In this document: one piece after another, positions 6,621 through 35,132 of the stretch | How the letters are laid out: each line of letters begins with the position of its first letter | How positions within the stretch are numbered: the first letter of the stretch is position 1 | Source of the DNA: Flavitalea sp. | Lineage (GTDB): Bacteria > Bacteroidota > Bacteroidia > Chitinophagales > Chitinophagaceae | DNA: 64,000 nt | Direction: 5' to 3' | Assembly: GCA_044224935.1 (NCBI GenBank) | Contig: JBGAJL010000007.1 | Coordinates: 4,161-68,160 of the forward strand | Made by a program: the position numbers and the translations under genes | The notes under the pieces: generated by a model | The model's input: only the letters and a program-made list of their open reading frames with translations | The model's database searches: none | What the model was told of the DNA's origin: nothing

Positions 6621-6653
6621 CAAAAGTATGAAAAAAATTGACGATCATGCAAA
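6621..6653 (-). promoter_or_regulatory. Candidate Bacteroidota sigma-AB promoter on the minus strand (TTTG-N21-TACTTTTG)
   Basis: The reverse complement of 6621-6653 reads TTTGCATGATCGTCAATTTTTTTCATACTTTTG. This gives a -33 TTTG, a 21-nt spacer and a -7 TAnnTTTG. It overlaps the susC start codon (6628-6630) and points away from susC. Confidence 0.4.
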
Positions 6654-9828: not shown

Positions 9829-9846
9829 CAATTAAGAGATACTGCA

Positions 9847-11568: not shown

Positions 11569-11609
11569 CCTGATAGTTAACAACTATAATAATTATTTAA
11601 AAGAGCAGC

Positions 11610-12797: not shown

Positions 12798-12834
12798 AGA
12801 AAATTGTGATAACTATAAATTAATAAGATAGACT

Positions 12835-14607: not shown

Positions 14608-14637
14608 CAGCAAATGCCCGTTAGCAAATAAAAAGTG

Positions 14638-15894: not shown

Positions 15895-15901
15895 CGATGC
15901 C

Positions 15902-16567
15902 ATGTTCCAGTTTTCCGAAATTACACCGTGGGGAAAGAACCTGGAGGAAAGTAAAACTATTTTCGGTTTAACGAATGAAGATCTCGAAAAAAAGATAGCA
16001 GGCTTTGCGGACGGGGCTTCCAGCTTAAATTGCGAGCTCAGCCGTATGGGTAAAGACATTATTTCTTTTGATCCGATATATGGTCTGCCGGAAGAATATT
16101 TACGATCCTGCTTCAGCGAGGTTATGGAACGATCTTCCCTGTTTATAAAAAGCGCACCCGATGCACAACACGTGGAATTAAAAGAAATAGAAAAGATCAG
16201 GAAAAAAACGGTGAACCTGTTCCTGGAAGATTATGAAGCCGGGCAAAAAGAAGGAAGATACAGGCCTTACAGCTTTCCAGGAACAACAGGTTTTGCGGAT
16301 CAATTTTTTGATCTTGGGCTTTGTTCCAACTTCCTTATGCTGTATGAAGAATTAGGAATAGAATTTCACCTCGCATCGGTATCGGAAATGTTGAGAATTT
16401 CCCGCGAGATCAGGATATTTCCCGTGATCAACTTCCTTGGGCAGCGCTCAGCCATGCTACCTTCATTGACCAGCTATTTTCAGCATTTGTTCCGGATCGA
16501 ATTTGTTGATGTGTATTGCGAACCCGGACCGCAGAAATTCAGCATGCTAAAAATGAGCAGGCTTTAA
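15902..16567 (+). CDS. Class I SAM-dependent methyltransferase-like protein (cytoplasmic; no signal peptide)
   Basis: 221 aa. The pattern PWGKNLEES...FGL...LEKKIAGFADGASSLNCEL...ISFDPIY...GRY...FADQFFDLGLCSNFLMLY...IRIFPV is collinear with a widespread small methyltransferase family, as I recall it. Its stop overlaps the next start (TAATG). Confidence 0.45.
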   Translation: MFQFSEITPWGKNLEESKTIFGLTNEDLEKKIAGFADGASSLNCELSRMGKDIISFDPIYGLPEEYLRSCFSEVMERSSLFIKSAPDAQHVELKEIEKIRKKTVNLFLEDYEAGQKEGRYRPYSFPGTTGFADQFFDLGLCSNFLMLYEELGIEFHLASVSEMLRISREIRIFPVINFLGQRSAMLPSLTSYFQHLFRIEFVDVYCEPGPQKFSMLKMSRL

Positions 16568-18348
16568 TGTTCAACACGGAAATAAAATATTTGCTATTTG
16601 TTGTACTTCTACATACAACAGCAAAGCACACTCAGGCTCAGCCCCTGTTCGGCACGGATGAACTCGGCAGAACTTTACTGCAAAATAATTCGGTAGGTGA
16701 TCCCAGGCCCGGCAGGCATATTGCCTTGTTTTATTTTTTATGGCAGGGAGATAGCCGGTCCCCTACTTCCCCCGGGAAATGGGACCTGGATGAAATAGTC
16801 AGCCATCATCCGGAAGTGCTCGATGATAACAAAAATCTCAACTGGGGCGGAAACATCGGAGATTATTACTTTTGGGGACAACCTATCTACGGCTACTACC
16901 GGGGAGATGACTATTGGGTACATCTTAAAAACATTCAATTATTCACCGATGCCGGGGTGGACCTGCTGATACTGGATGCTACAAACGCCATTACCTATTC
17001 CTTACAGGCCGAAGTGCTGATGAAGGCTGCCGATGCTGTACGGGCGCAGGGAAAAGCGCCGCCGGCCATTGTCTTTTATACCAATACGGAATCCGGAAAA
17101 ACAATGCAGGAAGTCTATAATAATTTTTATAAACATGGCGCACCCTATTGGCACCCCGGCTGCTGGTTCCGCTTAGACGGTAAGCCGCTCATCATTGGCC
17201 ATGCAAAAGAAACAGAGGGAAGAGACTTTAATACCTTCTTTACTTTCCGGGAATCGCAGTGGCCCAATTTGCCACAGGTACCCAACGGCTGGCCCTGGAT
17301 CAGTTTCAACAGAGCTCCCGAAGTGCATTATAACCTCCGCGGCAAGCCGGAAATTGCCAATGTTTCCGTTGCACAGCATCCCGATCCCCTGGCAGGCATG
17401 GGCGGCGCTGCTTTTTATGGCAATAAAAACAATTGGGGAAGAAGCTATCACAACAACAGTCATGGTGATCCTGCTGAAGACATCCGGTATGGATATAATT
17501 TCCAGGAACAATGGGATCATGTTCTAAAAGAAAAACTTCCCTTTATTTTTGTTACGGGCTGGAATGAATGGATAGCCGGACGCTGGAAAAGCACGGATGA
17601 AAATCCTAAACACTCCTATTTCTGCGACCAGGCAAGTCCCGAATACAGCCGTGATATCGAACCCACGCTCACTGCCGGGTTAAAGGATAATTATTTTATG
17701 CAATTGGTAAATAATATCAGGCGGTATAAGGGAATTGAAAAAAACAATAGTATGCCACCGGTGAAACAAATACGTGATATGGATGACTGGAAAAAGATTT
17801 CTTTCGCGTACAGCGACTATACAGGAGATACACGGCACCGCGACCATCCCGGCGCACAATCAAAGCCCGCAGTCGTATATGCCAATACAACAGGCAGGAA
17901 TGATTTTCGTCTTGTTAAAGTGGCGCATAATAAAAAGAATTTGTTCTTTTATGCAGAGACAGTGAATGAGATAACCCCATTTTCGGGTGATAACTGGATG
18001 CGGCTGTATATTGACTGGGACAGAAACCCCGCGACGGGGTGGAATGGCTATGACTATCGTATTATAGGGGGTAATACACTTCAGCAATACAGAGCGGATG
18101 AATGGATTACCATTAACCCGGTACCACTTAATAAGATTATTGAAAAAAATAAACTGATGATCACTCTTCCCATATTCCTTCTTAAGGGGCACACGCCCAG
18201 GGAGTTTGAATTTAAGTGGAGCGACAATATGCAGCGGAACGACCCGATGGATTGGTATATTAACGGCGATGCTGTACCGGGAGGACGTTTTAATTATTGC
18301 TATACGCCGCAACTGCATAAAAAAGCAGGTGAGACAATCAGTAAATAA
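16567..18348 (+). CDS. Secreted unclassified glycosidase-like protein (GH99/GH71-like sequence pattern); paralogue of the N-terminal module of the 1483-aa fusion
   Basis: The start is moved to the ATG at 16567, which gives the signal peptide MFNTEIKYLLFVVLLHTTAKHTQAQ. Blocks FYFLWQGD, WGQPIYGYYRGDDYWV, AGVDLLILDATN, VTGWNEWIAGRW, SPEYSRDIEP. The family is not assigned. Confidence 0.6.
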   Translation: MFNTEIKYLLFVVLLHTTAKHTQAQPLFGTDELGRTLLQNNSVGDPRPGRHIALFYFLWQGDSRSPTSPGKWDLDEIVSHHPEVLDDNKNLNWGGNIGDYYFWGQPIYGYYRGDDYWVHLKNIQLFTDAGVDLLILDATNAITYSLQAEVLMKAADAVRAQGKAPPAIVFYTNTESGKTMQEVYNNFYKHGAPYWHPGCWFRLDGKPLIIGHAKETEGRDFNTFFTFRESQWPNLPQVPNGWPWISFNRAPEVHYNLRGKPEIANVSVAQHPDPLAGMGGAAFYGNKNNWGRSYHNNSHGDPAEDIRYGYNFQEQWDHVLKEKLPFIFVTGWNEWIAGRWKSTDENPKHSYFCDQASPEYSRDIEPTLTAGLKDNYFMQLVNNIRRYKGIEKNNSMPPVKQIRDMDDWKKISFAYSDYTGDTRHRDHPGAQSKPAVVYANTTGRNDFRLVKVAHNKKNLFFYAETVNEITPFSGDNWMRLYIDWDRNPATGWNGYDYRIIGGNTLQQYRADEWITINPVPLNKIIEKNKLMITLPIFLLKGHTPREFEFKWSDNMQRNDPMDWYINGDAVPGGRFNYCYTPQLHKKAGETISK

Positions 18349-18353
18349 TTTGT

Positions 18354-20117
18354 ATGATGAAATCTTTTGTAACGAAATGCCTTTTATTGATCCTGTTACC
18401 CGGCATATCCCGGAGCCAGCTCCCTCCCCCTTTCAGCCAGGCCGCAGCAGCCAGGGCACAATCAATAGAAACGTCAATACGCTATCTTTCTGCCGAACGA
18501 ATAGTATGGCAATCGGAAAGCGCTGCAGATAATATTAAAAACGCGCAGCGGCTGTTGAAAAAAGGTAATGGTCAGGCCGATCTGGCCAACAAGGATATGT
18601 GCGTGTTAACAAGCACAGAGCGTAGTAAACCGGCATTGCTGCTCGATTTCGGCCGCGAACTGCATGGGGGCCTGCAAATCGTCACCGGTATGTACCCGGA
18701 TAAGAAACCGGTAAAGCTGCGCGTTCGTTTTGGCGAATCGGCCAGCGAGGCCATGAGCGATATAGAACCAAAACAGAACGCTACGAACGATCATGCCATG
18801 CGCGACATGATAGTGGAAGTACCCTGGCTGGGAAAATTGGAAATTGGAAATACCGGCTTCAGGTTTGTTCGTATTGATATGGTAGACGCAAATGTGGAAT
18901 TGCAACTGAAAGAAGTGCGGGCAATTTTTATTTTCAGGGATATACCCTATCTCGGATCATTTAATTGCAGCGATACCCTGCTCAATAAAATATGGATGAC
19001 GGGCGCTTATACCGTGCAGCTCAATATGCAGGATTATTTGTGGGACGGTATCAAGCGCGACCGCCTGGTATGGGTAGGCGACATGCACCCGGAAACCTCA
19101 ACCATAGCTGCTGTATTCGGCAATAATGATGTGGTACCCAAAAGCCTCGATCTTTCCCGGGATATCACACCGCTACCCGATTGGATGAATGGTATCAGCA
19201 CCTACTCTATGTGGTGGATCATTATTCACAGGGACTGGTATATGCATAATGGAAATCTCAGTTATCTTAAACAGCAGCAGCGCTATTTGGTGAAACTGCT
19301 CGATCAGATCATCACCAAAATAGATAAGAACGGAAAAGAGATGTTAGATGGCACCCGGTTTCTCGATTGGCCATCAAGCGAAAATACAAAAGGAGTAGAT
19401 GCAGGTTTGCAGGCCATGATGATCTTATCGCTGCAGGCAGGCAGAGAATTATGTAAAATATTAAATGAACCAGGCTCCGAACAAAAATGTGCAGCAGCAA
19501 TAAACCGCTTAAAAACCTATGTTCCGGATCCGAATAATTCAAAGCAGGCCGCTGCACTGATGACACTGGCCGGGTTAATACCCACCGGCAAGGCCGATAA
19601 GGAGATTATCAGCGTTGAAGGCGCTCATCATTTCTCCACTTTTTATGGATATTATATGTTGCAGGCCATGGCCAAAGCCGGTGACTACCAGGGAGCAATA
19701 AACGCTATCCGCAGCTATTGGGGCGCGATGTTAAAGCTGGGCGCCACCACTTTCTGGGAAGATTTTAATCTTGACTGGTTACCGAATGCTTCCCGTATAG
19801 ACGAGCTGCCCCTGCCGGGCCAGAAAGATATTCATGGCGACTATGGCGCTTACTGTTATATGGGTTTCAGGCACAGCCTCTGTCATGGATGGGCATCGGG
19901 CCCCACACCGTGGCTTAGCGAATATGTATTAGGCGTTAAAGTTCTAGCGCCCGGTTGCAGCGTAATAAAAATAGAGCCTCATCTGGGTGATCTCGATTTT
20001 GCAGAAGGAAGTTTTCCTACACCTTATGGCGTCATCAAAATAAAACATGTGAAGCGGCAGGATGGAAAAATAACCTCGACAGTGGATTCTCCAAAAGGAA
20101 TAAAAATCATACAATAA
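18354..20117 (+). CDS. GH78-related (alpha/alpha)6-barrel protein (rhamnosidase C-terminal-domain-like)
   Basis: Signal peptide MMKSFVTKCLLLILLPGISRSQ. The block DGIKRDRLVWVGDMHPE parallels the GH78 DCPQRDERLGWTGD motif, followed by HGWASGPTPWL. It lacks the N-terminal GH78 domains. Confidence 0.6.
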   Translation: MMKSFVTKCLLLILLPGISRSQLPPPFSQAAAARAQSIETSIRYLSAERIVWQSESAADNIKNAQRLLKKGNGQADLANKDMCVLTSTERSKPALLLDFGRELHGGLQIVTGMYPDKKPVKLRVRFGESASEAMSDIEPKQNATNDHAMRDMIVEVPWLGKLEIGNTGFRFVRIDMVDANVELQLKEVRAIFIFRDIPYLGSFNCSDTLLNKIWMTGAYTVQLNMQDYLWDGIKRDRLVWVGDMHPETSTIAAVFGNNDVVPKSLDLSRDITPLPDWMNGISTYSMWWIIIHRDWYMHNGNLSYLKQQQRYLVKLLDQIITKIDKNGKEMLDGTRFLDWPSSENTKGVDAGLQAMMILSLQAGRELCKILNEPGSEQKCAAAINRLKTYVPDPNNSKQAAALMTLAGLIPTGKADKEIISVEGAHHFSTFYGYYMLQAMAKAGDYQGAINAIRSYWGAMLKLGATTFWEDFNLDWLPNASRIDELPLPGQKDIHGDYGAYCYMGFRHSLCHGWASGPTPWLSEYVLGVKVLAPGCSVIKIEPHLGDLDFAEGSFPTPYGVIKIKHVKRQDGKITSTVDSPKGIKIIQ

Positions 20118-20160
20118 GCAGAGCGGTAAACCTATTATTAATATTTTATAAACAATACTG

Positions 20161-23049
20161 ATGGTTATGCGGGTTTTACAGTATATAGCAGGCGCGGGCG
20201 CAATATTACTATCTTTTTGTTGTCCTTTGATATTGGTTGCCCAGTTCGATTTGGTGCCAGTCAATCTGCGCGCAGAGTATAAGAAAAATGATTTTACCGA
20301 TGTTGCCAAACCACGGCTTGGCTGGGAATTAAAATCGGCCGTACACAACCAGTCTCAAACCGCATACCAGGTAATAGTAGCTTCTTCAACAGCATTACTT
20401 ACTCCCGAAAAAGCTGATATATGGAATTCGGACAAAATTTCTTCAGAAGAAACCATTCAGATCGAATATAACGGCCGGCCGTTGCAATCGAACCGAACCT
20501 ACTACTGGAAGGTGAGAAGCTGGGACGCGAAAGGAAACCCGGGTCAGTGGAGCCAACAGGCTTTTTGGCATACTGCACTTATGCAGCAAACCGACTGGAA
20601 AGCCGAGTGGATAGGATATGATGTGAATGCTTTATCCACTGACAAGGTGTATCATCTTCCCCCTGCACCTTATATGCGTAAAGAATCCGGGCTGAAAGCA
20701 AATATCAGAAAGGCAAATCTATACGTAACGGCGTTGGGATTATTTGAATTCTATATTAATGGCAAAAGAATAGGGAACGATTATTTTGCGCCGGGCTGGA
20801 CAGATTATAACAAAAGGGTTTACTATAATGCTTATGATGTAACCGCAAACCTGAAGGCCGGCCGGAATGCATTTGGGGCAATATTATCCACCGGATGGTA
20901 TGCGGGCTATTTAGGATATGCATTGCTGGTAGGCAGTGCTGTTACCCATGAATTTTATGGAAAAATTCCTTTGCTGAAAGCGCAGCTAGAAATAGAATAT
21001 ACCGATGGAACGAGACAGACGATTATATCCGATTCTTCGTGGAAAGCTTCTACAGGTGCCATACGCGAAGCCGATATCCTGAATGGTGAAATGGTTGATG
21101 CCAACAGGGAGCAGACGGGATGGAACAGGGCCGGTTTTAATGAAAGCAGTTGGAAGAATGTGCAATTGTTTCCGGAAAAAACGAATCTAGCCCTGCAATT
21201 ATACTCCGGGAACCCGGTACAAATTATAGCCGAGCTGACGCCGGTTGCAGTAAAGCAGCAGGGTGAAAGAAAATTTATAGCCGATATGGGGCAGAATTTT
21301 GCCGGTGTAATAAAATTGAATATTAAAGGAAAAAAAGGGGATACCATAGTGGTGAAATACGGGGAAATGCTTCTGCCCGATGGAAAATTAATGACCGAAA
21401 ATCTCCGCCGGGCACGTTGCACCGATACCTATATACTGAGTGGAAATCCGCAGGGAGAAACCTGGATGCCGAAGTTTACGTATCATGGGTTTCAATATGT
21501 GGAAATCAGTGGAATTCGCTATAAGCCTTCCCCTACAGCTATTAAAGGCATTGTGATGAGCGCCGCTACGCCAGCCGCAGGAAGCTTCATCACGGGTAAC
21601 GCAATGATCAACCAGCTGTACAAAAATATTGTATGGACACAGCGATCGAATTATTTTGATATTCCCACCGACTGCCCCCAAAGGGATGAACGCCTCGGAT
21701 GGACCGGAGATGCGCAGATTTATATGCGCTCCGCCGCTTTCAACACCGATATTGCTGCATTTCATACCAAATGGATCACCGATCTCAACGATGCGCAATG
21801 GCCCGATGGCGCCTATCCCGTTTATGCCCCTATGCCGGTAGATGCCGATGGTAAAGCCGCGATCCGGCCAACTGACACCTACTCACCTGGCTGGGCCGAA
21901 GCCGGAATAATTTGCCCGTATACTATTTTTAAAATGTATGGCGATACGCGCATCGTAAAAAAATCATGGCCCTATATGCTGCGGTATATGGATTTCCTGG
22001 AGAAGAAAAGCGACGGAAAATATTATTTTCCCGAAGCGTCCTTTGAAGATATTTCTCCAAAAGGAGGCTTTGGCGATTGGCTTTCTGTAGGCAGGAAAAC
22101 ACCGCCGGATATGCTGGCGACCATTTATTATTATTATTGCGCAGCGATGATAACAGAAATGGCAAATGGAATACAGGATACCATAGCAGCGAAAAAATAT
22201 GAAGAGACAGCAGAAAAAATCAGGGCAGCATTTGCCAGGCATTATATTGACAAAGATGGAAAATTCAAAACAGATACGGCGGCTTATGCCAATGGCGATG
22301 GATACGTGGATGGCTCACTGGGTTTTTCGGGGCATACACAAACGGCTTATGCCAATGCTATATACGCCGGAATATTGTCGTCCCGAAATATTGTCCTTGC
22401 CGGAAGATACCTGCGGGAACTTGTAGTTGAAAACAATAAACAGCTAACAACCGGTTTCCTGGGTTTTAAACCGCTATTGCCCGCGCTTTCCGCTACCGGC
22501 AGCAGCGACCTTGCCTATACACTTATAAAAGATACCGCTTATCCTTCACTGGGCTTTGAAGTGGTAAATGGCGCCACCACCATATGGGAACGCTGGAACA
22601 GCTATATTAAAGGAAAAGGATTCGAAAACAATATAGGCATGAATTCTTTCAATCATTACGCCTTTGGTGCAGTTTGCGAATGGCTGTTCCAGGATATGGC
22701 AGGTATTCAGCCGCTGGAACCGGGCTTTAAAACATTTATGATAAAGCCGGAAATATTCACCTCCGCAATTCCGTATGTGACGGCAACCTATCATTCGATA
22801 AGAGGAGTTATCGTTTCTTCCTGGAAAAAAAGTGATGGCAGGATTATTCAAAAACTGTCTATTCCGGTAAATACCCATGCGTATGTGCATATTCCTGCGG
22901 GACAAAACGAAATATTCCTGTCGGGGAAAAAAATAACCGACACTAAAAATATTCGTTTGCAAGAAGCAAAAGAAAGCTATACCGTTCTTGAATTAGGATC
23001 GGGAGAATATCGTTTTGAAATAAATGCGGATAAAAACAAGGGCCAGTGA
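20161..23049 (+). CDS. GH78 alpha-L-rhamnosidase
   Basis: 962 aa. N-terminal LRAEYKKNDF...PRLGWEL...QTAYQVIV...YYWKVRSWD, catalytic-domain hallmark PTDCPQRDERLGWTGDAQ, and C-terminal TTIWERWNS. Confidence 0.92.
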   Translation: MVMRVLQYIAGAGAILLSFCCPLILVAQFDLVPVNLRAEYKKNDFTDVAKPRLGWELKSAVHNQSQTAYQVIVASSTALLTPEKADIWNSDKISSEETIQIEYNGRPLQSNRTYYWKVRSWDAKGNPGQWSQQAFWHTALMQQTDWKAEWIGYDVNALSTDKVYHLPPAPYMRKESGLKANIRKANLYVTALGLFEFYINGKRIGNDYFAPGWTDYNKRVYYNAYDVTANLKAGRNAFGAILSTGWYAGYLGYALLVGSAVTHEFYGKIPLLKAQLEIEYTDGTRQTIISDSSWKASTGAIREADILNGEMVDANREQTGWNRAGFNESSWKNVQLFPEKTNLALQLYSGNPVQIIAELTPVAVKQQGERKFIADMGQNFAGVIKLNIKGKKGDTIVVKYGEMLLPDGKLMTENLRRARCTDTYILSGNPQGETWMPKFTYHGFQYVEISGIRYKPSPTAIKGIVMSAATPAAGSFITGNAMINQLYKNIVWTQRSNYFDIPTDCPQRDERLGWTGDAQIYMRSAAFNTDIAAFHTKWITDLNDAQWPDGAYPVYAPMPVDADGKAAIRPTDTYSPGWAEAGIICPYTIFKMYGDTRIVKKSWPYMLRYMDFLEKKSDGKYYFPEASFEDISPKGGFGDWLSVGRKTPPDMLATIYYYYCAAMITEMANGIQDTIAAKKYEETAEKIRAAFARHYIDKDGKFKTDTAAYANGDGYVDGSLGFSGHTQTAYANAIYAGILSSRNIVLAGRYLRELVVENNKQLTTGFLGFKPLLPALSATGSSDLAYTLIKDTAYPSLGFEVVNGATTIWERWNSYIKGKGFENNIGMNSFNHYAFGAVCEWLFQDMAGIQPLEPGFKTFMIKPEIFTSAIPYVTATYHSIRGVIVSSWKKSDGRIIQKLSIPVNTHAYVHIPAGQNEIFLSGKKITDTKNIRLQEAKESYTVLELGSGEYRFEINADKNKGQ

Positions 23050-25548: not shown

Positions 25549-26900
25549 ACATGTGCCCCATTGGTAACCACTGCGCTCCAGCGCTTCAACCGGAGAATAT
25601 CAGCGGGAATTTTATTATTATTCCAATGCTCATGGATCGCAAGGGCTGCGCCCAGTGAAGTGCCCTGCACCATAGTGGCAGCATACACTTTTTTACCGGC
25701 AAAAGCATTGGCCAGGTATTGCATATAAATAGTGTTCCTGCAAAATCCTCCATCCACATAAATGTTCTGAACGCTGCTGTTTTTTAAAACCATATTGGTA
25801 TAAACAGTCTGCTGGCAGATCATGTCTGCCATAAGATGGTAATATGCCTGTCCGGGAGAATGGAAATCATCTAAATTGCGTTGGCTGAACGGGCCCTCGG
25901 AAACGGTGCCTGATAACATTGACCCGGTATCAGCAGATAACGTTTTAAAAAAACCTGCGTCTATATTAAAGTGCTCCGCAATTCTCGACACCTGCAGGTC
26001 GTGTTCATTACCAGCAAACAGCATAGAGGTTTTCACAGGTTTTCCCCTGTAGGTCAGGTAGCTTAAACATCCTTTGGACAGCTCTGCCGGGTCGGGTAAG
26101 TTTTGATTGAAAGGATTTAAACTGATCGCCCATGTGCCGGTGGAAAGAATAATAAACGGCTCCGTGAAAATGCTCAGGTAAGGAATAATAGCTGCCGAGC
26201 TGTCGTGCAGGCCAATGCCCACGGCTATGTCTTGCCCGGTATATTCATTATTTATTTTAACGACATGGCTTCCCGGTGTTATCGGTGATAACCTGGACCG
26301 GATGCCCTCTTTTTCCAACCAGGGATGATATTGCATGCGCTGAAAATCCCACATTGCGGAATGGCAGCCCAAATTAGTTGTTTCGGCAAATTTTTTCCCG
26401 GTAAGCAAAAAGCTCAGGTATTGTGGAAAATGCAATGAACTGCGTATCCTGGCAAACAATTCGGGGCGCTTATGTTTTAACCAATACAATTGCATGCCTG
26501 CATTGAGATGACCCATAATGGGTGAACAGGTTTCACTGAGAAATTTTCCGTCTGCATAAGTGAGCTGAAACTCACGCATCAGATCATCAGGGTAAGGCTT
26601 CAGGTAATTGTACAGATAGCCCACCCTGTCTGCCGATTCATCGATGTGCACAAGCGAAGCGCCGTAGGTTGAAAAATTAATGGCCTTCAGAGAAAAGGTT
26701 TCCGATTTTTTCAGCTCGCCGACCTTTGATAATATCCACGCCGACAGGCTGCCAATGTCTTCGCATGGAAATCCGTCTTCATCTGCGATTTCATCAAAAC
26801 GTACCGATTCCTCTCTTACAATATTATAATCGCTGTCAAAGACCAACAGTTTTTTATTGGTCTTTCCGATATCGAATATGGCAACAACCGGAACTTTCAT
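25545..26900 (-). CDS. FGGY-family carbohydrate kinase (candidate rhamnulokinase by context)
   Basis: 451 aa. N-terminal ATPase motif AIFDIGKTNKKLLVFD and later FGGY-like blocks (STGTWAISL, VDGGF). It is adjacent to rhaT. Confidence 0.7.
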   Translation of the reverse strand: MKVPVVAIFDIGKTNKKLLVFDSDYNIVREESVRFDEIADEDGFPCEDIGSLSAWILSKVGELKKSETFSLKAINFSTYGASLVHIDESADRVGYLYNYLKPYPDDLMREFQLTYADGKFLSETCSPIMGHLNAGMQLYWLKHKRPELFARIRSSLHFPQYLSFLLTGKKFAETTNLGCHSAMWDFQRMQYHPWLEKEGIRSRLSPITPGSHVVKINNEYTGQDIAVGIGLHDSSAAIIPYLSIFTEPFIILSTGTWAISLNPFNQNLPDPAELSKGCLSYLTYRGKPVKTSMLFAGNEHDLQVSRIAEHFNIDAGFFKTLSADTGSMLSGTVSEGPFSQRNLDDFHSPGQAYYHLMADMICQQTVYTNMVLKNSSVQNIYVDGGFCRNTIYMQYLANAFAGKKVYAATMVQGTSLGAALAIHEHWNNNKIPADILRLKRWSAVVTNGAHV

Positions 26901-26903
26901 CTG

Positions 26904-27986
26904 CTAATGATTTAATGAATTACCATAACCAACAATAATCACTGCCGAAATAATAGTGACGATGCCCAGTATGATCGTACGGCGAGTACGCCTGCTGACG
27001 CCCTTCCATTCTTTAAGGGCAAAACCCCATAAGTTGGCCACCAGGATAATAAATGCCATGTGCAGTATCCAGGAGCTGGCGCCGTTGCCCAGCTTGCTCT
27101 CTCCCATTCCATAAAATAAATATTGCATAAACCATACAGTGCCTGCGAGAGCAGAAAAAATGTAATTCCTCAGCAAGGGCGTACGTGAATCGGTGTAATC
27201 ACCAAATGTTTTATTCCTGGCGCTAAGTACCATGCACCAAATAAAATTCGTAGTGAGACCGCCCCATAATAACACCACGTAGATAACATTGTTCCTGAAT
27301 AGGAAATTTATATTTTCAGCAGGGTGCGCCGCTTTCCATATTTCATTCGCCCGCTCAGCCAGTGAGGCGCCAGCCTCAATGCCATAATTAAACCCAGCGC
27401 TTAATATCCCGGAAATTATGCAGACAACCAGGCCCTTTTTAAGATTGAACTCTTTCACACTGTCTTTCTTTACCTCTTCGGGCAATTCTTTTTCTTTCAT
27501 ATACCCGGCCCTGCCGCACAGATAAATTCCAATCAGGCACAATGCAACGCCCAGCAACACAACCTGCCCCCATGAGTGCGTTACCAGATCTGTAAACGTA
27601 ATTTTTCCTTTAACATTGGCAAGGTCGTAGTAAATGGAAGGAGCAAGCGCACCGAAAGCGGAAGTGAATCCCAATAACACCGAGTTCCCCAGCGACATGC
27701 CCAGGTAGCGCATTCCCAGGCCATACATCAACCCCCCGACACCCCAAAGCGCACCCCAGAAAAAGACCCAGAACAGATCAGTAAAGGAAGCTTCGGCGAT
27801 AATGGTGCCAAAACCAGGAACAGTGAGCCATGCCACCAGTGGCGGCATGATCAGCCAGGAGAAAAGCCCGCCGGTGAGCCAATAGGTTTCCCAGGACCAG
27901 CCCCTCACTTTTTTATAGGGCATATAAAAGCTGCCTGATGCGGCGCCGCCAATAAAATGATATATAATTCCAATCAGAACCTGCAT
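26904..27986 (-). CDS. rhaT: L-rhamnose/H+ symporter RhaT
   Basis: The N-terminus IGIIYHFIGGAASGSFYMPYKKVRGWSWETYW closely parallels E. coli RhaT ([29 protein letters not shown]). 360 aa with about 10 TM segments. Confidence 0.9.
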   Translation of the reverse strand: MQVLIGIIYHFIGGAASGSFYMPYKKVRGWSWETYWLTGGLFSWLIMPPLVAWLTVPGFGTIIAEASFTDLFWVFFWGALWGVGGLMYGLGMRYLGMSLGNSVLLGFTSAFGALAPSIYYDLANVKGKITFTDLVTHSWGQVVLLGVALCLIGIYLCGRAGYMKEKELPEEVKKDSVKEFNLKKGLVVCIISGILSAGFNYGIEAGASLAERANEIWKAAHPAENINFLFRNNVIYVVLLWGGLTTNFIWCMVLSARNKTFGDYTDSRTPLLRNYIFSALAGTVWFMQYLFYGMGESKLGNGASSWILHMAFIILVANLWGFALKEWKGVSRRTRRTIILGIVTIISAVIIVGYGNSLNH

Positions 27987-27995
27987 GCGTTATGT

Positions 27996-30900
27996 TTATC
28001 GTTGCACAGTGAAATGATATGTGCCGGATCCGGTATTTAACCTGATCTTTCCGTCGGAAGCTGTTGTTTTTCCCTTTAATAATTCAGCCGGCAATTGCTT
28101 ATCCCCCTCCTTTATTTTATTTATTTCGGCTGTAGGGAATGTTATTTCCGCCGATGCATTCGGAGGAATAGTGATTGTCCAGTCCAACCTCTGATCCGAT
28201 TTGTGCCATTCGCTTTTCACTTCACCGTATTTTGTTTCGAGTGATGCCCTGACAAAATTCAACCCATCAGGAAAAACCGGGTGCATGATTATCTTTTTGA
28301 ATGCCGTTTGCTTTGCATCTGTTTTTATTCCTGCCAGGTATTCATAATACCAGATCAGCAAATCGCCCAGGAGCATTTGGTGATTTCCTGAATTCATCAC
28401 AGGGTTGGCCGCATCTCCATTCCATAATTCCCAGATAGTGGTGGCGCCTTTTTTAACCATGTATCCCCAACTGGGATAAGTGGTATTGGTTGCCAGTTTG
28501 TAAGCCAGGTCGGTAGCCCCGTTATCACTGAGCCCACGCATCAGCCACATCCCGCCGATTATCCCGGAATTAACATGATCATCAAATTCTTTCAGTTTTG
28601 CGCGTATATTCTGAAACACCGCCTCCCTGTCCTGCCCGGGCACCATATTGAAGCTAAGGGGCAGCAGGTTGGCAGTTATCGTATTATTTGAATAAGATTT
28701 AGATTCCGAATGATAGAATTTTTTGTTGAAGGCCACTCTGATCTTTTGCGCTATCGCTTCAAAACCAGCAATGTCTGCCCGCTCGCCAACCAACGAAGCG
28801 TAATCTTTCATCAGGCCCAGGCAATAATAGAAATAAGCAGACGCCAGCAATCCGCCATCTGTGATCCTCGCAGGATCTTTAGACCATATAAGATCCAGGG
28901 ATTCAGGAGGCACGCACCAGTCACCATAAATATCTTTCAATATCAGATCATCTTCCCTGTATGTATTCCACATATACATGATCCATTTGCGCATGGCGGG
29001 ATAATGTTTACGGATACCGGACGAATCTCCGAACTGACGCCGCAGCATTTCAGGTATGAGTATAAATGCACTCGGATAAGTGACATTATCGGCATAACAA
29101 TCCCAATACGTAGGTGCAATATTCGGCAGGCTGCCGTTGGATTTTTGCGAATCGTCTATATCATCCAGCCATTTTGCATATAATCGGGAGTTATCGAAAA
29201 TAAAGCTTTCTCCATAAGAGCTCATCACTCTGTCTCCCAGCCAGCCTACTCTTTCATCGCGCTGCGGGCAATCTGTCGGCATCCCGCGATAATTACCACG
29301 GATGGTCCAGTAGGCATTTTTAAATATCGCATTTATCGTTTCGTTGGATGTCTTGAATTTCCCGATTGTCTGCACGTCATCGTAGAGCACCTTTCCTTCA
29401 AAATCGTTGGGAGCAGGAGCTTCATGCAATCCCCATATTTCAACATACCGGAACCCGTGATAGGTGAACCGCGGCTCCCATCTCTCTTTTCCTTCACCTT
29501 TTAATATATATTTATCCGTTACCTGTGCATTCCGCATATTAGCGGTATAAATAGCATCTTCACCTTTCATGGTCTCAGCAAACTGCATACGCACTGTGTC
29601 GCCCCTTTTTCCATTCACGGCAATGGCAAGCCATCCTACCATATTCTGCCCCATATCCAGGATATAGGAACCGCGCGAAGTATGTTTAACAGCGACCGGA
29701 TGAAGAATTTCCTTCACAACAATATTCTCATTGGGCTGTGCCGTTATTAATTCCTTGCCTGCCGGCATAAGCGCTGCATTTTTCCAGTCGCCGTCATGAT
29801 AGCCTGCTTTGTTCCAGCCGGTTAATTCTTTATTTGCATCATATTCCTCACCGTCGTATTCATTATCAGCCAGTATGGGGCCGTTATCTGTTACTTTCCA
29901 GCTCTGGTCCGTTACAATAAAAGACGACGAGCCGTCTGCATACCGGATCCGGATCTGCATCAGCAATTGTGGCAATCCATATGTTTTTTGCGGAATGCCG
30001 GTAAGCGGATCCGGCTTGCCGTGATAATTCCTCATGCCGAAGAAACGGCCGTTCCCTAATATAACACCTACACAGTTAATCCCCTGCTTGAGGCAGTTGC
30101 TGATATCATAAGTGTTATAAAAGACCCGTTTGTCATATTCCGTGGGACCGGGCGCTAACACATCCAGGGCCACCTTTTTTCCATTGATATATAACTCATA
30201 TAATCCCAATCCGCTGATATATGCAGTTGCATCGACCACTTTCTTTGCAGCGGAAAATTCTTTTCGCAGGAACCTGGCGGATAATCTTGTCATTACACTG
30301 TCTGGCTGGTCTGACTTGTTAAATCCGTTTAAACCGATCCATTTTGCCTGCCAGTCGGAAGGTTTCAACAATCCCATTGTCCATAGCTGCGGATCGCTGA
30401 TCGCCACATTGCCGTTATTGTCCCACACTTTCACGCGCCAATAGCAGCGCTGATAAGAGCTGAGTGGCTTTCCACCATACGGTACATTCACTGATTCATC
30501 AGAAAAGATTTTATTGCTTTTCCACAGATCAGCTTCATTATTCAGCAATTTTTCCCTGCTTGATGCAACCCATAGCTCATACGCTGCCTGTTTAATGCTC
30601 CTGCCGGTGGATTGCAACTTCCAGCTCAGCCGGGGTTTCAGGATATCGGTTCCCAATAACAATTCGCGGCCTTCCACCGTTAAATGCGCCACCTCCAGCT
30701 TTTTCACTGGCGCGATCCTGTATAAATAGCTCAGCCTGCCCATTGGAAGCGCGCTTCCCGATACATAATATTCCATAATATCGGAAGGTTTACCGATGCC
30801 ATCCGCAACTTTAAAATAGATCTGTGCAACACGCTGGGCCTGCAGGCACTTGCGGGGAATTTTTATCTGGACAGTGTTTCCATGCACGGCCATTTCGGCT

Positions 30901-32447
30901 TTACCTGTATTTTGCCTGTTATAATTTGAGTCCAGCTTATAAACATTTCCGGCTTCTATTAAATATTCATACCCGTTCCATCCTTTCACAGAAGGCTCAT
31001 CCTTTCCGATGAGCAATTGAAGGTGGTTTGCCCCTGAAGCAAATGGATTCATCGCGCTAACAAAAAAATAGAATGATGAGTTATCGTGGGCAACTTTTAT
31101 TTCTTTTAAAATGTTTTCGGGCGCCGCGAGCGTATATCGTATTTTTTTGGACACGCCGAAATTATCCCTGCCTTTTTCTATTATATTTAAGTTTTCATAT
31201 TTTGCTTTGACATCATTCCATTGCGCAACCGGTCCGTGAATATTCATTGGAGTTGAAACGCTTTCATTTTCTCCGTCAGCCAGCCCTTTGAATTTCCTTA
31301 TATTTTTGATCAGTTGGATGTAAAACGCATCTTCATAGCCTCCTCTCATCGGTTCAATATCCCTTGAATATTCCCTGCTCGCTGCGTCACAGAGCATGTA
31401 TTCATCGCCATACGGTTGTTTATAAGCAATCCATTCGTTCCATCCTCCCACGAAAACGGTGTCGGGATCCATCTTCAAAGCATTATCCCACTGCAATTGA
31501 AAGAATGTGCCGCGGTCGATGTTTTCTTTTTTATTCTGCCTCGTTTCAGGATCCCATCCCCGCCCCCAGTTTATCCATCCCGAAGTGATCGAGCGCGACA
31601 TCGGCACTTTGGGATGGCTGGCCACGGTAACGTTCATTATGCCGCCATGCAAAGGCTGCGGGTAGCGCCATTCGATCCAGGGAAAGCCGTTCTCATATAC
31701 AGGGTCGAAAGGCCATTGCGGTTTTTTGAAATAGAAAAAGTTTTTAAGCTCCCCGGAATAAGGAACCGGCTTATATGCCGTATCGTTCCTGCTTAACGCT
31801 TCAGCAATATCATCTCCCGTGTCTGTGTATGCAATGATCATTGGCTTGCCCCCAACCTTGTACCATGCAGAAGAAAAAAGCCCCGGTTTATATAATTCTT
31901 CATACAACTCATGAGTGGTTGCAAACGATCTTGAATGCGTATAAAAAACAACTTTGGGAGGATTGGCACCCTGCTTCATCATCTCTTCTATCACCTTAAA
32001 CACACGCTCGTACACAGCCCGGTAAGTGACGCGGTTCGTAAGATCGAAGACAATGAAATCTATACCGGCCGTGGTAAGCATTTTCATCTGGCGGCGGATC
32101 ACCCATTCATCTTCGGAATTATAATAGCCCCATAAAGGTTCTCCCCAGAAATGCGCCTGGCCACTGGGGCTTACACTGTCGTTAAGATATTTAAAATCGT
32201 ACAGCAGCTTAAGCCCGTTGGGCATTGCGGCTATTTTTGTTGCGTCATACACTCCGCTCGCATAAGGCTGCCCTATCCAGGGCCAGTAAAAAATCCCCAC
32301 CTGCTTTACGTTGTTATAACCGCCAATGCTGGGAAAAGTTCTCCCGAAATGGTCTACCCCCACCACTTTATAATCGCTGTTATTGACCTGCGCTGAAATC
32401 GTCAGCGAAATAAAAAACATATACAGTAATACGGATAACGGTTTCAT
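27996..32447 (-). CDS. Fusion protein: unclassified glycosidase-like module (aa 1 to ~580) + GH78 alpha-L-rhamnosidase (aa ~581 to 1483)
   Basis: One uninterrupted 1483-aa ORF with a signal peptide. The N-terminal half is collinear with the ORF at 16567-18348. The C-terminal half has GH78 hallmarks (KPRLSWKL, YWRVKVWD, PTDCPQRDERVGWLGD, TTIWELWNG). Confidence 0.88.
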   Translation of the reverse strand: MKPLSVLLYMFFISLTISAQVNNSDYKVVGVDHFGRTFPSIGGYNNVKQVGIFYWPWIGQPYASGVYDATKIAAMPNGLKLLYDFKYLNDSVSPSGQAHFWGEPLWGYYNSEDEWVIRRQMKMLTTAGIDFIVFDLTNRVTYRAVYERVFKVIEEMMKQGANPPKVVFYTHSRSFATTHELYEELYKPGLFSSAWYKVGGKPMIIAYTDTGDDIAEALSRNDTAYKPVPYSGELKNFFYFKKPQWPFDPVYENGFPWIEWRYPQPLHGGIMNVTVASHPKVPMSRSITSGWINWGRGWDPETRQNKKENIDRGTFFQLQWDNALKMDPDTVFVGGWNEWIAYKQPYGDEYMLCDAASREYSRDIEPMRGGYEDAFYIQLIKNIRKFKGLADGENESVSTPMNIHGPVAQWNDVKAKYENLNIIEKGRDNFGVSKKIRYTLAAPENILKEIKVAHDNSSFYFFVSAMNPFASGANHLQLLIGKDEPSVKGWNGYEYLIEAGNVYKLDSNYNRQNTGKAEMAVHGNTVQIKIPRKCLQAQRVAQIYFKVADGIGKPSDIMEYYVSGSALPMGRLSYLYRIAPVKKLEVAHLTVEGRELLLGTDILKPRLSWKLQSTGRSIKQAAYELWVASSREKLLNNEADLWKSNKIFSDESVNVPYGGKPLSSYQRCYWRVKVWDNNGNVAISDPQLWTMGLLKPSDWQAKWIGLNGFNKSDQPDSVMTRLSARFLRKEFSAAKKVVDATAYISGLGLYELYINGKKVALDVLAPGPTEYDKRVFYNTYDISNCLKQGINCVGVILGNGRFFGMRNYHGKPDPLTGIPQKTYGLPQLLMQIRIRYADGSSSFIVTDQSWKVTDNGPILADNEYDGEEYDANKELTGWNKAGYHDGDWKNAALMPAGKELITAQPNENIVVKEILHPVAVKHTSRGSYILDMGQNMVGWLAIAVNGKRGDTVRMQFAETMKGEDAIYTANMRNAQVTDKYILKGEGKERWEPRFTYHGFRYVEIWGLHEAPAPNDFEGKVLYDDVQTIGKFKTSNETINAIFKNAYWTIRGNYRGMPTDCPQRDERVGWLGDRVMSSYGESFIFDNSRLYAKWLDDIDDSQKSNGSLPNIAPTYWDCYADNVTYPSAFILIPEMLRRQFGDSSGIRKHYPAMRKWIMYMWNTYREDDLILKDIYGDWCVPPESLDLIWSKDPARITDGGLLASAYFYYCLGLMKDYASLVGERADIAGFEAIAQKIRVAFNKKFYHSESKSYSNNTITANLLPLSFNMVPGQDREAVFQNIRAKLKEFDDHVNSGIIGGMWLMRGLSDNGATDLAYKLATNTTYPSWGYMVKKGATTIWELWNGDAANPVMNSGNHQMLLGDLLIWYYEYLAGIKTDAKQTAFKKIIMHPVFPDGLNFVRASLETKYGEVKSEWHKSDQRLDWTITIPPNASAEITFPTAEINKIKEGDKQLPAELLKGKTTASDGKIRLNTGSGTYHFTVQR

Positions 32448-32450
32448 ATG

Positions 32451-35132
32451 CTACCATTTTGAAATAAACCGGTAATTACCTGACCCTATTTCATAGACAG
32501 CCGCGCGATCTTCGCGGCGAAGGAATTTAAACTCTTTGTTCCCGCTGATGGATCTGCTATTTTCCCTGACCGACGACGGGTCACTCGTGGGAATATACAC
32601 AGTGGCAACAGAATTGGCAGGGACGCTTACAGAATATTCAATTTTGCCATTGATCTTTTTCCATGAAGATTTAATTTCCCCTTTCACTGATTTATACGAT
32701 CCTTCGGCAAACTGTAATTGATCGAATATATAAGGATGTAAAATAAACCTGTCGAAGCCGGGATAATTAACATCCGGCAATATTCCCAAAACATATTTAT
32801 ACATCCATGATCCGACAGACCCCATCATTGGATGATTGTGTGAATTCATCGATCCGCCGGTTGCATATTCCCAGCGCTCCCATAAAGTGGTGGCACCCTC
32901 CGAAAGCATATATCCCCAGCTGGGATAGGTTTCCTGGGTGGCGATCTTATAGGCAGTTTCTGCTTCTCCGTTTTCGGTGAGCATTTCAAGCAAATATTTC
33001 GTGCAGAGGTTTCCGGTGGTCAGGTGATATTTATATTCCTGCACTTTCTTCACGAGATTGGCAACTACCCGCGCTTTTTTTGTGCTGTCCGGTGCACCGA
33101 TGAACAAAGCAAATGAATTGCAGGATTGGTTATTGCTGCCATAACCCCCCTTTTCTTCATCCCAGAATTTTTCATTGAAGGCTTTCAGCGTATTTTCAGC
33201 CAACTGCTCATATTTATTTTTATCGTTGAGATTTCCGATAATATCAGCCATCCGGGAAAGCACTTTGGCCGTGTAATAAAGATATCCTGTCGACATCAGC
33301 TCACCGGGTGTTTCGGTGGAAAGAGCCCCATATCCTGAACCCTTCTTTCCAAATTCAGCGGGCGGAGACCAGTCTCCATAATAACTGTAATCAACAATAC
33401 CGTTCTTTGTTCTGCCTGCCACATAATCCACCCAGGCTTTCATATTCGAATAATTTCTCTGCACGATATTCCTGTTTCCATAATATTCATAGCTCTTAAA
33501 AGCCAGTAATAAGAAACTGGCGGAAACAGGATCAGCAGGCTCTGCTCCATATCTGAAAGGAGCGGTGTCGGCTATCTCACCGTCTTTATCCTGCGTGTCG
33601 CATATATCCCTGATGAACTTTTCATAAAAGCGATTCAGATTAAAATTGTAGAGTGCCTGTTCGATGCGAACCGTAAGATCATTGAGCCATCCCATACGCT
33701 CATCGCGCTGGGGGCAATCTGTGGGAACGCTGTGCAAATTACTGGCCTCTGTGCGTTGCACCATCCGGTTGATACGGTTGAGCAGATCATTGCTGCAATG
33801 AAAGCTGCCGGACGATTCCACATCCGAGCGGACCCTTTTTAAAGTGAACTGCTCAATGGCCGGCTTACCGGGCCATCCTTCAATCTGCACATACCTGAAA
33901 CCATGATAAGTGAATCGCGGTTCCCATTTTTCTTCACCGCCACCTTTGAGAATATAGGTATCTGTTGCCATAGCCGTGCGAAGATTTTCCTGGTTCACCG
34001 TTCCATTTTCATAAATCGTTTCCGCAAAGCGCATGGTAATCTTCGTTCCCCGCTCCCCGTTCACCTGCAGCGCCAGCCAGCCCGCCATATTCTGTCCGGC
34101 ATCCAATACAAAAATGCCTGGCTTCACTTCTTTTATGCCCGCAGGCGCAAAGCTGTCCACCACTCTGATAGGCTCCAGTACCTGTGCGGTCATCGCACCT
34201 CCGGGAGCTTCCACTATATTGGCAACGCCCCAGTCTTTGCTGGGTATTGTTTTGATAATTGAGTCAGATGGAATTCTCCATTCCGGTTTCTCAAGCCTTG
34301 CGTCATACATTTCTCCATCCAGTATCCCCGCAGACACCACAGGCCCGAGCGTAACATTCCTGACAGACGAGGAATTGATCACGTCAACCGTTCCATCATC
34401 GAAATAAAATTCCATCTGCATGCGCAGCTTCGGCATTCCATACCATCCCGGCGCAACAGCAATTATCATTACATTTTCCTTTTTCAGGAAGCTGCCAATA
34501 TCATAAGTGGTATAGTAAACCGTTTTACTGAAATCACTGGTTGCAGGGTCGAGAACGTTCAGGCCCACTTTTTTTCCATTAATCTCCATTTCGTTATACC
34601 CTATTCCCGATACATAGGCTCTTGCTTTAATCACATGCTTATTTAAAGAAAATACACGCCGGAAATAATGCACTTTACCAATCCATCCTGATGGAAATCC
34701 CACCCAACTGCCGGTCCAGTCCGACTGGTTAAGGAGGCCCATCTCGAAATCGGCGATTCCACTTTCTTCCATTTTGCTTCCGCCCGACCACACTGTCACT
34801 TTCCAGTAATATTTTTTTCTCGACTCGAGAGGAAGGCCTTTATAAATAATTCCTGAAGATTGCGGGGAAGATATTTTCCCGCTGTTCCAGATATTCCCTT
34901 CCCCTCCTTTTAATTTAACTGAATCGTCGGCAACCAGAACCTGGTAGGCCAATTGCCTGTAGTTTCTGAACGCGGATCTTATTTTCCAACTGAATTGCGG
35001 GGTGGGATTATCAATGCCCAGCGGGTTTCTTGCATCCTCACAACGGGGGTCTTCCACACCTGCCGAGACATAAGCGGGAAGCAATAATAACAGGAACATC
35101 CATGAGTACAGGGAGAGAAAGCGGTTTGTCAT
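32451..35132 (-). CDS. GH78 alpha-L-rhamnosidase
   Basis: 893 aa, with a signal peptide. NPLGIDNPTPQFSWKI, YYWKVTVWS, PTDCPQRDERMGWLNDL, TTLWERWE. Confidence 0.92.
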   Translation of the reverse strand: MTNRFLSLYSWMFLLLLLPAYVSAGVEDPRCEDARNPLGIDNPTPQFSWKIRSAFRNYRQLAYQVLVADDSVKLKGGEGNIWNSGKISSPQSSGIIYKGLPLESRKKYYWKVTVWSGGSKMEESGIADFEMGLLNQSDWTGSWVGFPSGWIGKVHYFRRVFSLNKHVIKARAYVSGIGYNEMEINGKKVGLNVLDPATSDFSKTVYYTTYDIGSFLKKENVMIIAVAPGWYGMPKLRMQMEFYFDDGTVDVINSSSVRNVTLGPVVSAGILDGEMYDARLEKPEWRIPSDSIIKTIPSKDWGVANIVEAPGGAMTAQVLEPIRVVDSFAPAGIKEVKPGIFVLDAGQNMAGWLALQVNGERGTKITMRFAETIYENGTVNQENLRTAMATDTYILKGGGEEKWEPRFTYHGFRYVQIEGWPGKPAIEQFTLKRVRSDVESSGSFHCSNDLLNRINRMVQRTEASNLHSVPTDCPQRDERMGWLNDLTVRIEQALYNFNLNRFYEKFIRDICDTQDKDGEIADTAPFRYGAEPADPVSASFLLLAFKSYEYYGNRNIVQRNYSNMKAWVDYVAGRTKNGIVDYSYYGDWSPPAEFGKKGSGYGALSTETPGELMSTGYLYYTAKVLSRMADIIGNLNDKNKYEQLAENTLKAFNEKFWDEEKGGYGSNNQSCNSFALFIGAPDSTKKARVVANLVKKVQEYKYHLTTGNLCTKYLLEMLTENGEAETAYKIATQETYPSWGYMLSEGATTLWERWEYATGGSMNSHNHPMMGSVGSWMYKYVLGILPDVNYPGFDRFILHPYIFDQLQFAEGSYKSVKGEIKSSWKKINGKIEYSVSVPANSVATVYIPTSDPSSVRENSRSISGNKEFKFLRREDRAAVYEIGSGNYRFISKW

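Follow-up and report, generated by a model that had tools for sequence, protein, structure and literature searches.

The fusion gene and its architecture

We analysed a 64,000-nucleotide stretch of a Flavitalea sp. contig (JBGAJL010000007.1; hereafter the window), in which an uninterrupted open reading frame (ORF) of 1483 amino acids (aa) on the reverse strand, at 27996..32447, encodes a fusion protein. From its N terminus, the product consists of a signal peptide, a module of about 560 aa, a five-residue linker (APVKK) and a complete α-L-rhamnosidase of glycoside hydrolase family 78 (GH78) (Table 1). The fusion itself is a minor and recent event. The main result is the family to which the module belongs, a large and uncharacterised one related to GH99 and GH71, whose catalytic motif is altered and whose genes are strongly associated with GH78 and rhamnose loci.

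All five GH78 domains of Pfam (Ig_Rha78A_N, Bac_rhamnosid_N, Bac_rhamnosid, the six-hairpin domain (6-hairpin) and the C-terminal domain) were found at aa 586-1448, far over threshold (E = 5e-16 to 4e-101), and the PDB relatives of this half include 6I60 (E = 1.6e-168), 3W5M and 6GSZ. The C-terminal 900 aa are an ordinary, complete GH78. In the first 580 aa, Pfam gave a single sub-threshold GH99 match (aa 50-207, 18.6 bits versus a cut-off of 33), and NCBIfam recognised the rhamnosidase part alone. The first-pass annotation, made by a model from the sequence alone, had described one 1483-aa ORF joining a module of about 580 aa to a complete GH78 without a signal peptide of its own. The ORF and its five domains bear this out, and the GH78 part starts at ...LEVAHLTVEGR, while stand-alone orthologues are about 35 residues longer at the N terminus, signal peptide included. 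Read by eye, the signal peptide at aa 1-19 is the sole export signal of the entire fusion; its type, signal peptidase I (SPI), was likewise assigned by eye and not by a predictor. A regular-expression split of lipoprotein and SPI signal peptides over-called lipoproteins, and its result was not used.

Origin of the fusion

The closest homologues of the module (the top 120) are all stand-alone proteins of 560-680 aa, which stop two residues past '...LSYLYRI'. Separate, adjacent genes encode the module and the GH78 in Chitinophaga sp. MM2321 (locus L002) and on a metagenome contig (L001), in the order GntR, class-II aldolase, xylose-isomerase-like TIM protein, GH78 (906 aa), module (595 aa), GH78 (934 aa), RhaT (L002 only) and FGGY kinase. 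Only 7-12 bp lie between the module gene and the downstream GH78 gene, whose product begins with a signal peptide. The two are likewise separate genes in four other loci (L005, L051, L083 and L084). Alignment of the junction DNA revealed that about 110 bp of the relatives are absent from the window. This segment comprises the two final codons of the module gene with their stop codon, the intergenic spacer, and the start and signal-peptide codons of the GH78; homology restarts at the mature N terminus of the GH78, where the start of the window's GH78 part faces LQVNALTVEGR in L002. The difference from the relatives is a clean in-frame deletion, neither a frameshift nor a lost stop. Since the GH78's own signal peptide was deleted, its export would now depend on that of the module.

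For comparison, we used 120 related loci, of which 82 came from species-representative genomes and 38 were metagenomic loci found with a junction-spanning query. No other module-GH78 fusion was present in the 82 genome loci or in the 38 metagenome loci. Apparent junction-crossing matches in L099, L105/106 and L116/117/119 were rejected, since the alignments ran on into the signal peptides of GH78s or the C-termini of modules. The fusion protein forms a one-member cluster, derived from one 74.7-kb NCBI contig, and the event appears to be a recent, lineage-specific singleton joining of two operon neighbours. That two independent proteins had been fused was proposed at first pass, and the separate, adjacent halves of the relatives agree with it; the junction, then placed near nt 30700, kept its location and was refined to nt 30699-30713 (aa 579-583). 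In the Rosetta-stone sense (Marcotte et al.), the parts occur separately and their functional link has independent corroboration, but the fusion does not recur.

Fold and remote homology of the module

The module has no NCBIfam family and no Pfam family above threshold. A family profile was built from an alignment of 42 sequences (A1), which was also used for the AlphaFold model. Against all PDB sequences, this profile retrieved GH99 endo-α-mannosidase alone (E = 1.3e-5), with the module's W-N-E-W-I-A sitting on the F-N-E-W-H-E of GH99. A PDB search with the single module sequence gave designed PPR proteins and DARPins, which were discarded as spurious repeat-protein matches. The match to the Pfam GH99 family PF16317, at 22.3 bits for the isolated module, stays below the cut-off; weak matches (E ≤ 0.01) were found in 22 of the 42 aligned members, with a best E-value of 5e-6, and none nears 33 bits. 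For GH71 (PF03659), there was no match at E ≤ 0.01 among the same 42 members.

The AlphaFold2 model of the module (predicted local distance difference test score 86.4, predicted template modelling score 0.91) shows alternating β-strands and α-helices up to about model residue 390 and is all-β at 397-559 (residue 397 corresponds to about aa 416 of the fusion). It thus has a (β/α)8 barrel, the fold of GH99, and this barrel is packed on a C-terminal β-sandwich, the architecture of GH71. Foldseek against the PDB ranked GH99 first (E = 2e-6, template modelling (TM) score about 0.5 when normalised to the target, 12-14% identity), with 18 GH99 entries at a probability of 1.00 and E-values of 2e-6 to 1e-4. 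The next family was GH71, represented by Agn1p (E = 1e-4, TM score 0.25-0.36). No solved structure of the module family was found among PDB sequences (2026 copy) or PDB folds (to April 2026). The earlier guess of a GH99/GH71-type barrel was therefore correct, and the accompanying statement that the module could not be placed in a CAZy family agrees with the lack of a Pfam or NCBIfam family and with the profile result, in which GH99 is the sole PDB relative. The module family appears to be a third branch of the GH99/GH71 superfamily.

An altered catalytic dyad

GH99 and GH71 share a D/E-x-x-E catalytic dyad at an equal structural position, which reads EW[H/G]E in GH99 and DYGE in GH71 (PMC12394665, PMC11025385). 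In BxGH99 the dyad is E333/E336 (PMC11025385, PMC12394665), and in GH71 the barrel is intimately packed against a C-terminal β-sandwich (PMC12394665). The module has neither form of the dyad, the comparison with GH71 resting on the GH99 alignment together with the shared dyad position (PMC12394665). At the equivalent place it has E-W-[IVT]-A. In a set of 133 family members less than 60% identical to one another, the first dyad Glu is kept in 128, and the +3 position is Ala in 118 and Val in six, the others including one Ile, one Gly and one Met; Asp or Glu never occurs there. Because the second acid is missing, activity and mechanism cannot be transferred from GH99 or GH71.

Ten carboxylates are at least 90% conserved in the same set (in fusion numbering, D32, D113, D130, D135, E338, D354, E359, D363, E365 and D373), as are N138, K201, R296, R362 and many aromatic residues. 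Highly conserved residues are also found in the β-sandwich. This pattern would fit an enzyme with a relocated second catalytic group and not a decayed binding module; D135, D354, D363, E365 and D373 are presumably the candidate suppliers of that group.

Extent of the module family

Searches with the two subfamilies (A, with the fused module, and B, with the stand-alone paralogue described below) each returned over 4,000 clusters at 90% identity. The family search returned 4167 matches at E ≤ 1e-5, nearly all of them 'hypothetical proteins' of about 600 aa, with the occasional automatic name 'glycosyl hydrolase family 71' in UniRef. Clustering at 50% identity gives 2,019 clusters with a cut-off of E ≤ 1e-3 and 759 when it is tightened to E ≤ 1e-30. 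Among species-representative genomes, the family occurs at no fewer than 589 loci from at least eight phyla, and the taxa include Bacteroidota, Clostridia, Bacillales (Paenibacillus, Cohnella), Planctomycetota, Acidobacteriota, Actinomycetota, Chloroflexota and Verrucomicrobiota.

Longer members, from Firmicutes, add fn3 domains, galactose-binding-like carbohydrate-binding modules (CBMs) or a GDSL esterase. As a clue to the substrate, these long members gave no second glycoside hydrolase domain among the fusion partners. In one metagenomic protein from ENA (P0161, 862 aa), a subfamily-B module is joined to a metallo-β-lactamase-fold domain (PF00753), and a protein of 1851 aa (P0251) has a C-terminal GDSL esterase.

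Association with GH78 across genomes

Counting neighbours within 6 kb, GH78 is by far the commonest neighbour of the module, being present in 26 of the 82 genome loci, followed by SusD (12) and SusC (9). When the window genes were mapped on the 120 loci, two recurrent pairs were revealed. In the first, an 893-type GH78 precedes a subfamily-A module, adjacent and often close to it or with an overlap of a few bases, in Chitinophagaceae, Prolixibacteraceae, Tannerella, Dysgonomonadaceae, Proteiniphilum, Prevotella and other Bacteroidales. In the second, a subfamily-B module precedes a short GH78 in Niabella, Prolixibacteraceae and Bacillaceae (L036, L064 and L072) and, with weaker similarity, in loci including Paenibacillus and Cohnella (L035, L037, L038, L044 and L052). 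Downstream of the module, a GH78 of the kind fused in the window occurs in Chitinophagaceae only.

The adjacency, found in Bacteroidota and Bacillales, occurs in two paralogous subfamilies and two phyla, so the functional inference rests on synteny and not on the singleton fusion. The link of the module to GH78 and rhamnose, as first proposed, is upheld in this form, since operon adjacency in many lineages carries it far more than the fusion does. Of the fused GH78 as the module's partner, the GH78 link stands, but the most conserved partner of the subfamily-A module is the upstream GH78 at 32451-35132. In the 120 related loci, the suggested check of co-occurrence and fusion across genomes had a divided outcome, positive for co-occurrence and negative for fusion.

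Several loci show further features. In loci from Clostridia, the rumen and the human gut (L086-L095, L029, L033, L034, L046, L048, L070 and L077), the module gene is present in tandem as two or three copies with no GH78 within 6 kb, and some of these copies have N-terminal extensions of 200-600 aa; these loci are a second ecological context, which the rhamnose-operon model does not explain. Six Bacillales loci of Paenibacillus and Cohnella, L035 (31-3702) among them, have a DUF5722 protein of about 1,200 aa (E = 6e-143) with a galactose-binding-like domain, which lies beside the module and GH78 and is another uncharacterised candidate partner. One contig titled 'MAG: Citrobacter freundii' (L012, QFQQ01000010.1, 58700-72373) has SusD, GDSL esterase, module, GntR, aldolase, RhaI-like protein and GH78 in the Bacteroidota arrangement and is probably mis-binned.

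The surrounding rhamnose locus

The fusion gene lies in a polysaccharide utilization locus (PUL), in which adjacent SusC and SusD genes are accompanied by glycoside hydrolases and a GntR regulator (Table 1). The upstream gene order at 35145..44897 matches that in L001 and L002. Judged from gene spacing, the fusion is apparently co-transcribed with exo-rhamnosidases, esterases, SusC/D and the rhamnose catabolic pathway. The catabolic genes of the operon serve rhamnose only, and among the annotated genes of the window no mannose or glucan genes were found in the operon. Such rhamnose-only catabolism is compatible with a module that releases rhamnose or rhamno-oligosaccharides, but it is no proof.

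The rhamnose pathway of the window is a variant, in which a 323-aa xylose-isomerase-like TIM protein with a weak RhaI_grampos match replaces RhaA and a 440-aa protein carries two class-II aldolase domains. Beside the PUL, between the GDSL esterase and a β-helix protein, a 642-aa protein (44941-46869, forward strand) matches the thiol-activated cytolysin family (PF01289, E = 9e-14).

Table 1. Features of the fusion gene, its operon and the paralogue locus in the window. In the signal peptide, / marks the cleavage position.
Feature	Coordinates	Strand	Basis
Whole fusion ORF (module, linker, GH78)	27996..32447	-	ORF, Pfam domains
Signal peptide, aa 1-19, MKPLSVLLYMFFISLTISA/QV, SPI type	32391..32447	-	Sequence, by eye
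Module (β/α)8-like barrel, aa 20-409, remote GH99/GH71 relative	31221..32390	-	AlphaFold2 model, Foldseek, profile against PDB
N337-E338-W339, with Ala341 at +3 of E338	31431..31439	-	E338 aligned to first catalytic Glu of GH99 'EWHE' dyad
D135-L-T-N138, end of β-strand; candidate catalytic or substrate-binding residues	32034..32045	-	Conservation: D135 132/133, N138 133/133
E359-Y-S-R-D363-I-E365, every named residue ≥92% conserved; together with D354 and D373, candidate relocated second acid	31353..31373	-	Conservation
Module C-terminal β-sandwich, aa 410-578, ending in conserved Y-x-x-G-x-x-x-P-x-G-R...LSYLYRI	30714..31220	-	AlphaFold2 model, conserved residues, GH71 architecture
Fusion linker APVKK, aa 579-583	30699..30713	-	Junction comparison with relatives
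GH78 α-L-rhamnosidase half, aa 584-1483 and stop; DCPQRDERVGWLGD motif	27996..30698	-	Pfam, PDB sequence matches
Upstream GH78, 893 aa, own signal peptide, 3 nt before fusion start	32451..35132	-	ORF, Pfam
RhaT rhamnose/H+ symporter	26904-27986	-	Domain annotation
FGGY kinase	25545-26900	-	Domain annotation
α/β-hydrolase esterase	24301-25548	-	Domain annotation
Cys/Met pyridoxal phosphate (PLP) enzyme	23066-24247	-	Domain annotation
Xylose-isomerase-like TIM protein, probable RhaI-type isomerase	35145-36116	-	Weak RhaI match
Double class-II aldolase	36164-37486	-	Domain annotation
GntR regulator	37633-38664	+	Domain annotation
SusD	38672-40498	-	Domain annotation
SusC	40485-43595	-	Domain annotation
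GDSL esterase	43704-44897	-	Domain annotation
Stand-alone module paralogue (subfamily B), own signal peptide	16567..18348	+	593 aa from ATG; 610 aa from TTG at 16516
Divergent short GH78-like gene, 5 bp past paralogue; conserved partner of subfamily B	18354..20117	+	6-hairpin domain E = 7e-19; 3CIH
Third full-length GH78, 962 aa, same PUL as paralogue	20161..23049	+	Domain annotation

The stand-alone paralogue

A second PUL of the window (6628-23049) holds the stand-alone paralogue, for which neither Pfam nor NCBIfam gave a match. The paralogue aligns collinearly with aa 7-576 of the fusion over about 600 aa (31% identity, 49% positives, E = 8e-89). A secreted paralogue collinear with the module had already been noticed at first pass, and all the motif pairs then listed for the two proteins are found in this alignment. 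An identical paralogue with its two neighbours is present in an independent assembly of a public sequencing run (L121, Logan SRR28480385 contig 38049), which probably includes the source organism.

The short GH78-like protein encoded directly after the paralogue has BT1001 (3CIH) as its closest solved structure (E = 7e-44). The motif DCPQRDERxGWxxD is common to the window's three long GH78s; the short protein is without the corresponding DCPxRDERxGW, and its specificity may be different from that of the long GH78s. Directly upstream of the paralogue, between a GH123 gene and the module gene, two forward-strand genes encode proteins of 419 aa (14635-15894) and 221 aa (15902-16567), for which Pfam, the one database run on them, gave no match and the 120 related loci contained no homologue.

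Proposed function and alternative explanations

We consider it moderately likely that the fusion is recent and that the module represents a new glycosidase family related to GH99/GH71, catalytically active and acting jointly with GH78 on oligosaccharides that bear rhamnose. Two neighbours in a conserved Bacteroidota locus for the utilization of L-rhamnose would have been joined by the loss of about 110 bp. Both module copies of the window have SPI-type signal peptides by eye (...ISA/QV and ...TQA/QP), which in Bacteroidota suggest the periplasm and therefore oligosaccharide substrates. Imported rhamnose-containing oligosaccharides, possibly acetylated, would be de-esterified by the acetyl and GDSL esterases and trimmed by two GH78s of differing specificity. 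The module, acting in the periplasm alongside the GH78 exo-α-L-rhamnosidases, would cut a bond beyond the reach of GH78, perhaps a rhamnosidic linkage that is internal or unusual, or else the linkage formed by the sugar adjacent to rhamnose. The rhamnose released would enter through RhaT and be isomerised, phosphorylated and cleaved. The fusion would tether two sequentially acting enzymes and rescue the export of the GH78. Judged from its conserved residues, the module is predicted to be an active glycoside hydrolase.

Several observations weigh against this reading. The second catalytic acid of GH99 and GH71 is missing from the module family. About 40 loci from Clostridia, gut or rumen lack a GH78 within 6 kb, which means that the association with GH78 is not universal; three of them carry a GH106-like gene (27 bits, slightly sub-threshold). 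No biochemical data or description for any family member was found in the literature searched, and the rhamnose-regulon paper PMC3870299 does not mention the family. By Pfam, NCBIfam, PDB sequences and PDB folds the module belongs to an unclassified family, which may nevertheless already hold a CAZy number. NCBI CDD contains uncharacterised 'GH99_GH71_like' subfamilies, which may include it as well; if those models cover the family, the fold relationship is already catalogued, though not the function or the coupling to GH78. The fusion has been seen once only and its junction is known from one assembly; exact look-up of the fusion, RhaT and the upstream GH78 gave no second assembly of the junction on record, which leaves a small residual probability of an artefact.

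An assembly or sequencing artefact, with two genes in the living organism as in all relatives, is what the singleton cluster, the single contig and the absence of fusion from the 120 related loci would favour. We hold it improbable, because the missing 110 bp or so leave the reading frame intact and correspond exactly to stop codon, spacer, start codon and signal peptide, which is not a point error; by eye there is no repeat or low-complexity sequence at the junction (no repeat search was made), and an unfused GH78 without a signal peptide would be mislocalised. A similarly slight probability is given to a non-catalytic module, that is, a carbohydrate-binding or scaffold domain of glycosidase fold that aids substrate binding by GH78. 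The Ala in place of the second dyad acid across the family speaks for it, as does the constant position of the module beside genuine hydrolases in Bacteroidota. However, ten carboxylates, several Asn, Arg, Lys and aromatic residues and the first dyad Glu are strongly conserved, and so many conserved acids are unlikely for a lectin; the long members bring CBM-like and fn3 domains of their own as enzymes do, and many loci have the module without a nearby GH78.

It is also conceivable, though very improbable, that the module is no more than a divergent member of GH99 (an endo-α-mannanase) or of GH71 (an α-1,3-glucanase), found near GH78 without a shared substrate. The family has no other detectable relatives, about half of the aligned members match PF16317 weakly, and some UniRef names point to GH71. 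On the other hand, the GH99 cut-off is not approached and GH71 is not matched at all, the D/E-x-x-E dyad is lost, and identity to the GH99 structures is 12-14% with a TM score of about 0.5. Adjacency to GH78 and rhamnose genes in two paralogous subfamilies and two phyla, in an operon free of mannose and glucan genes, likewise tells against it. There is a small chance, finally, that the family is a new glycoside hydrolase for α-L-rhamnosidic bonds, such as an endo- or linkage-specific rhamnosidase acting on rhamnans or rhamnose-rich oligosaccharides, which arose from the GH99/GH71 stem with the GH99-type Glu retained. L-Rhamnose is 6-deoxy-L-mannose and has an axial 2-OH like mannose, so a GH99-like neighbouring-group mechanism is possible. 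The retained Glu would drive such a mechanism through a 1,2-anhydro-sugar, with the general acid coming from another loop.

If the module is active, as we favour, it would represent a third widespread branch of GH99/GH71 in soil, gut and rumen bacteria, with about 2,000 clusters, an altered catalytic centre and rhamnose-bearing glycans as the lead to its substrate. Such glycans include pectic rhamnogalacturonans I and II (RG-I/RG-II), gum arabic-type arabinogalactans, ulvan, rhamnans and exopolysaccharides of bacteria, and rhamnoglycosides of plants. Their full breakdown often halts at linkages that GH78 and GH106 do not cut; the operon-partner family of GH78 is a specific candidate for the missing activity and would sharpen substrate prediction for PULs. 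GH99 is retaining and proceeds via an epoxide intermediate, while GH71 is inverting, and the E-x-x-A variant of the dyad would be a natural test case for how the two chemistries diverged.

Comparison with known systems

In its setting, the module would act as a typical carbohydrate-active enzyme of a PUL. With GH99 (BtGH99 4ACZ/4AD0, BxGH99 4AD1), the module shares the barrel superfamily, the 'FYxxW' of strand β1, 'G-x-Y-x-x-x-D' and the Asn-Glu-Trp that contains the first catalytic Glu. It differs in the Ala at the second dyad position, in an extra C-terminal β-sandwich of about 170 aa and in its context, which is rhamnose and GH78 instead of mannan or N-glycan. GH71 (AnGH71C; Agn1p 8YFH/9M6L) has the same barrel packed on a C-terminal β-sandwich, whereas the module lacks the DYGE dyad, having Glu as the first acid, as in GH99, and Ala at the second position; furthermore, the module family is bacterial and occurs in PUL or rhamnose contexts. 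The C-terminal half of the fusion resembles known GH78 enzymes (DtRha 6I60, SaRha78A 3W5M, AT-Rha 6GSZ, BT1001 3CIH), but the fused copy has lost its signal peptide and is tethered to the module by five residues, an architecture absent from the related loci. Fusions of carbohydrate-active enzymes in Bacteroidota PULs, such as BT1020 and BT0996 of an RG-II PUL, reportedly described by Ndeh et al. in 2017, similarly place two catalytic modules for one glycan on one polypeptide. Those fusions are said to be conserved and biochemically characterised, whereas that of the window is a singleton which appears to stem from a recent deletion.

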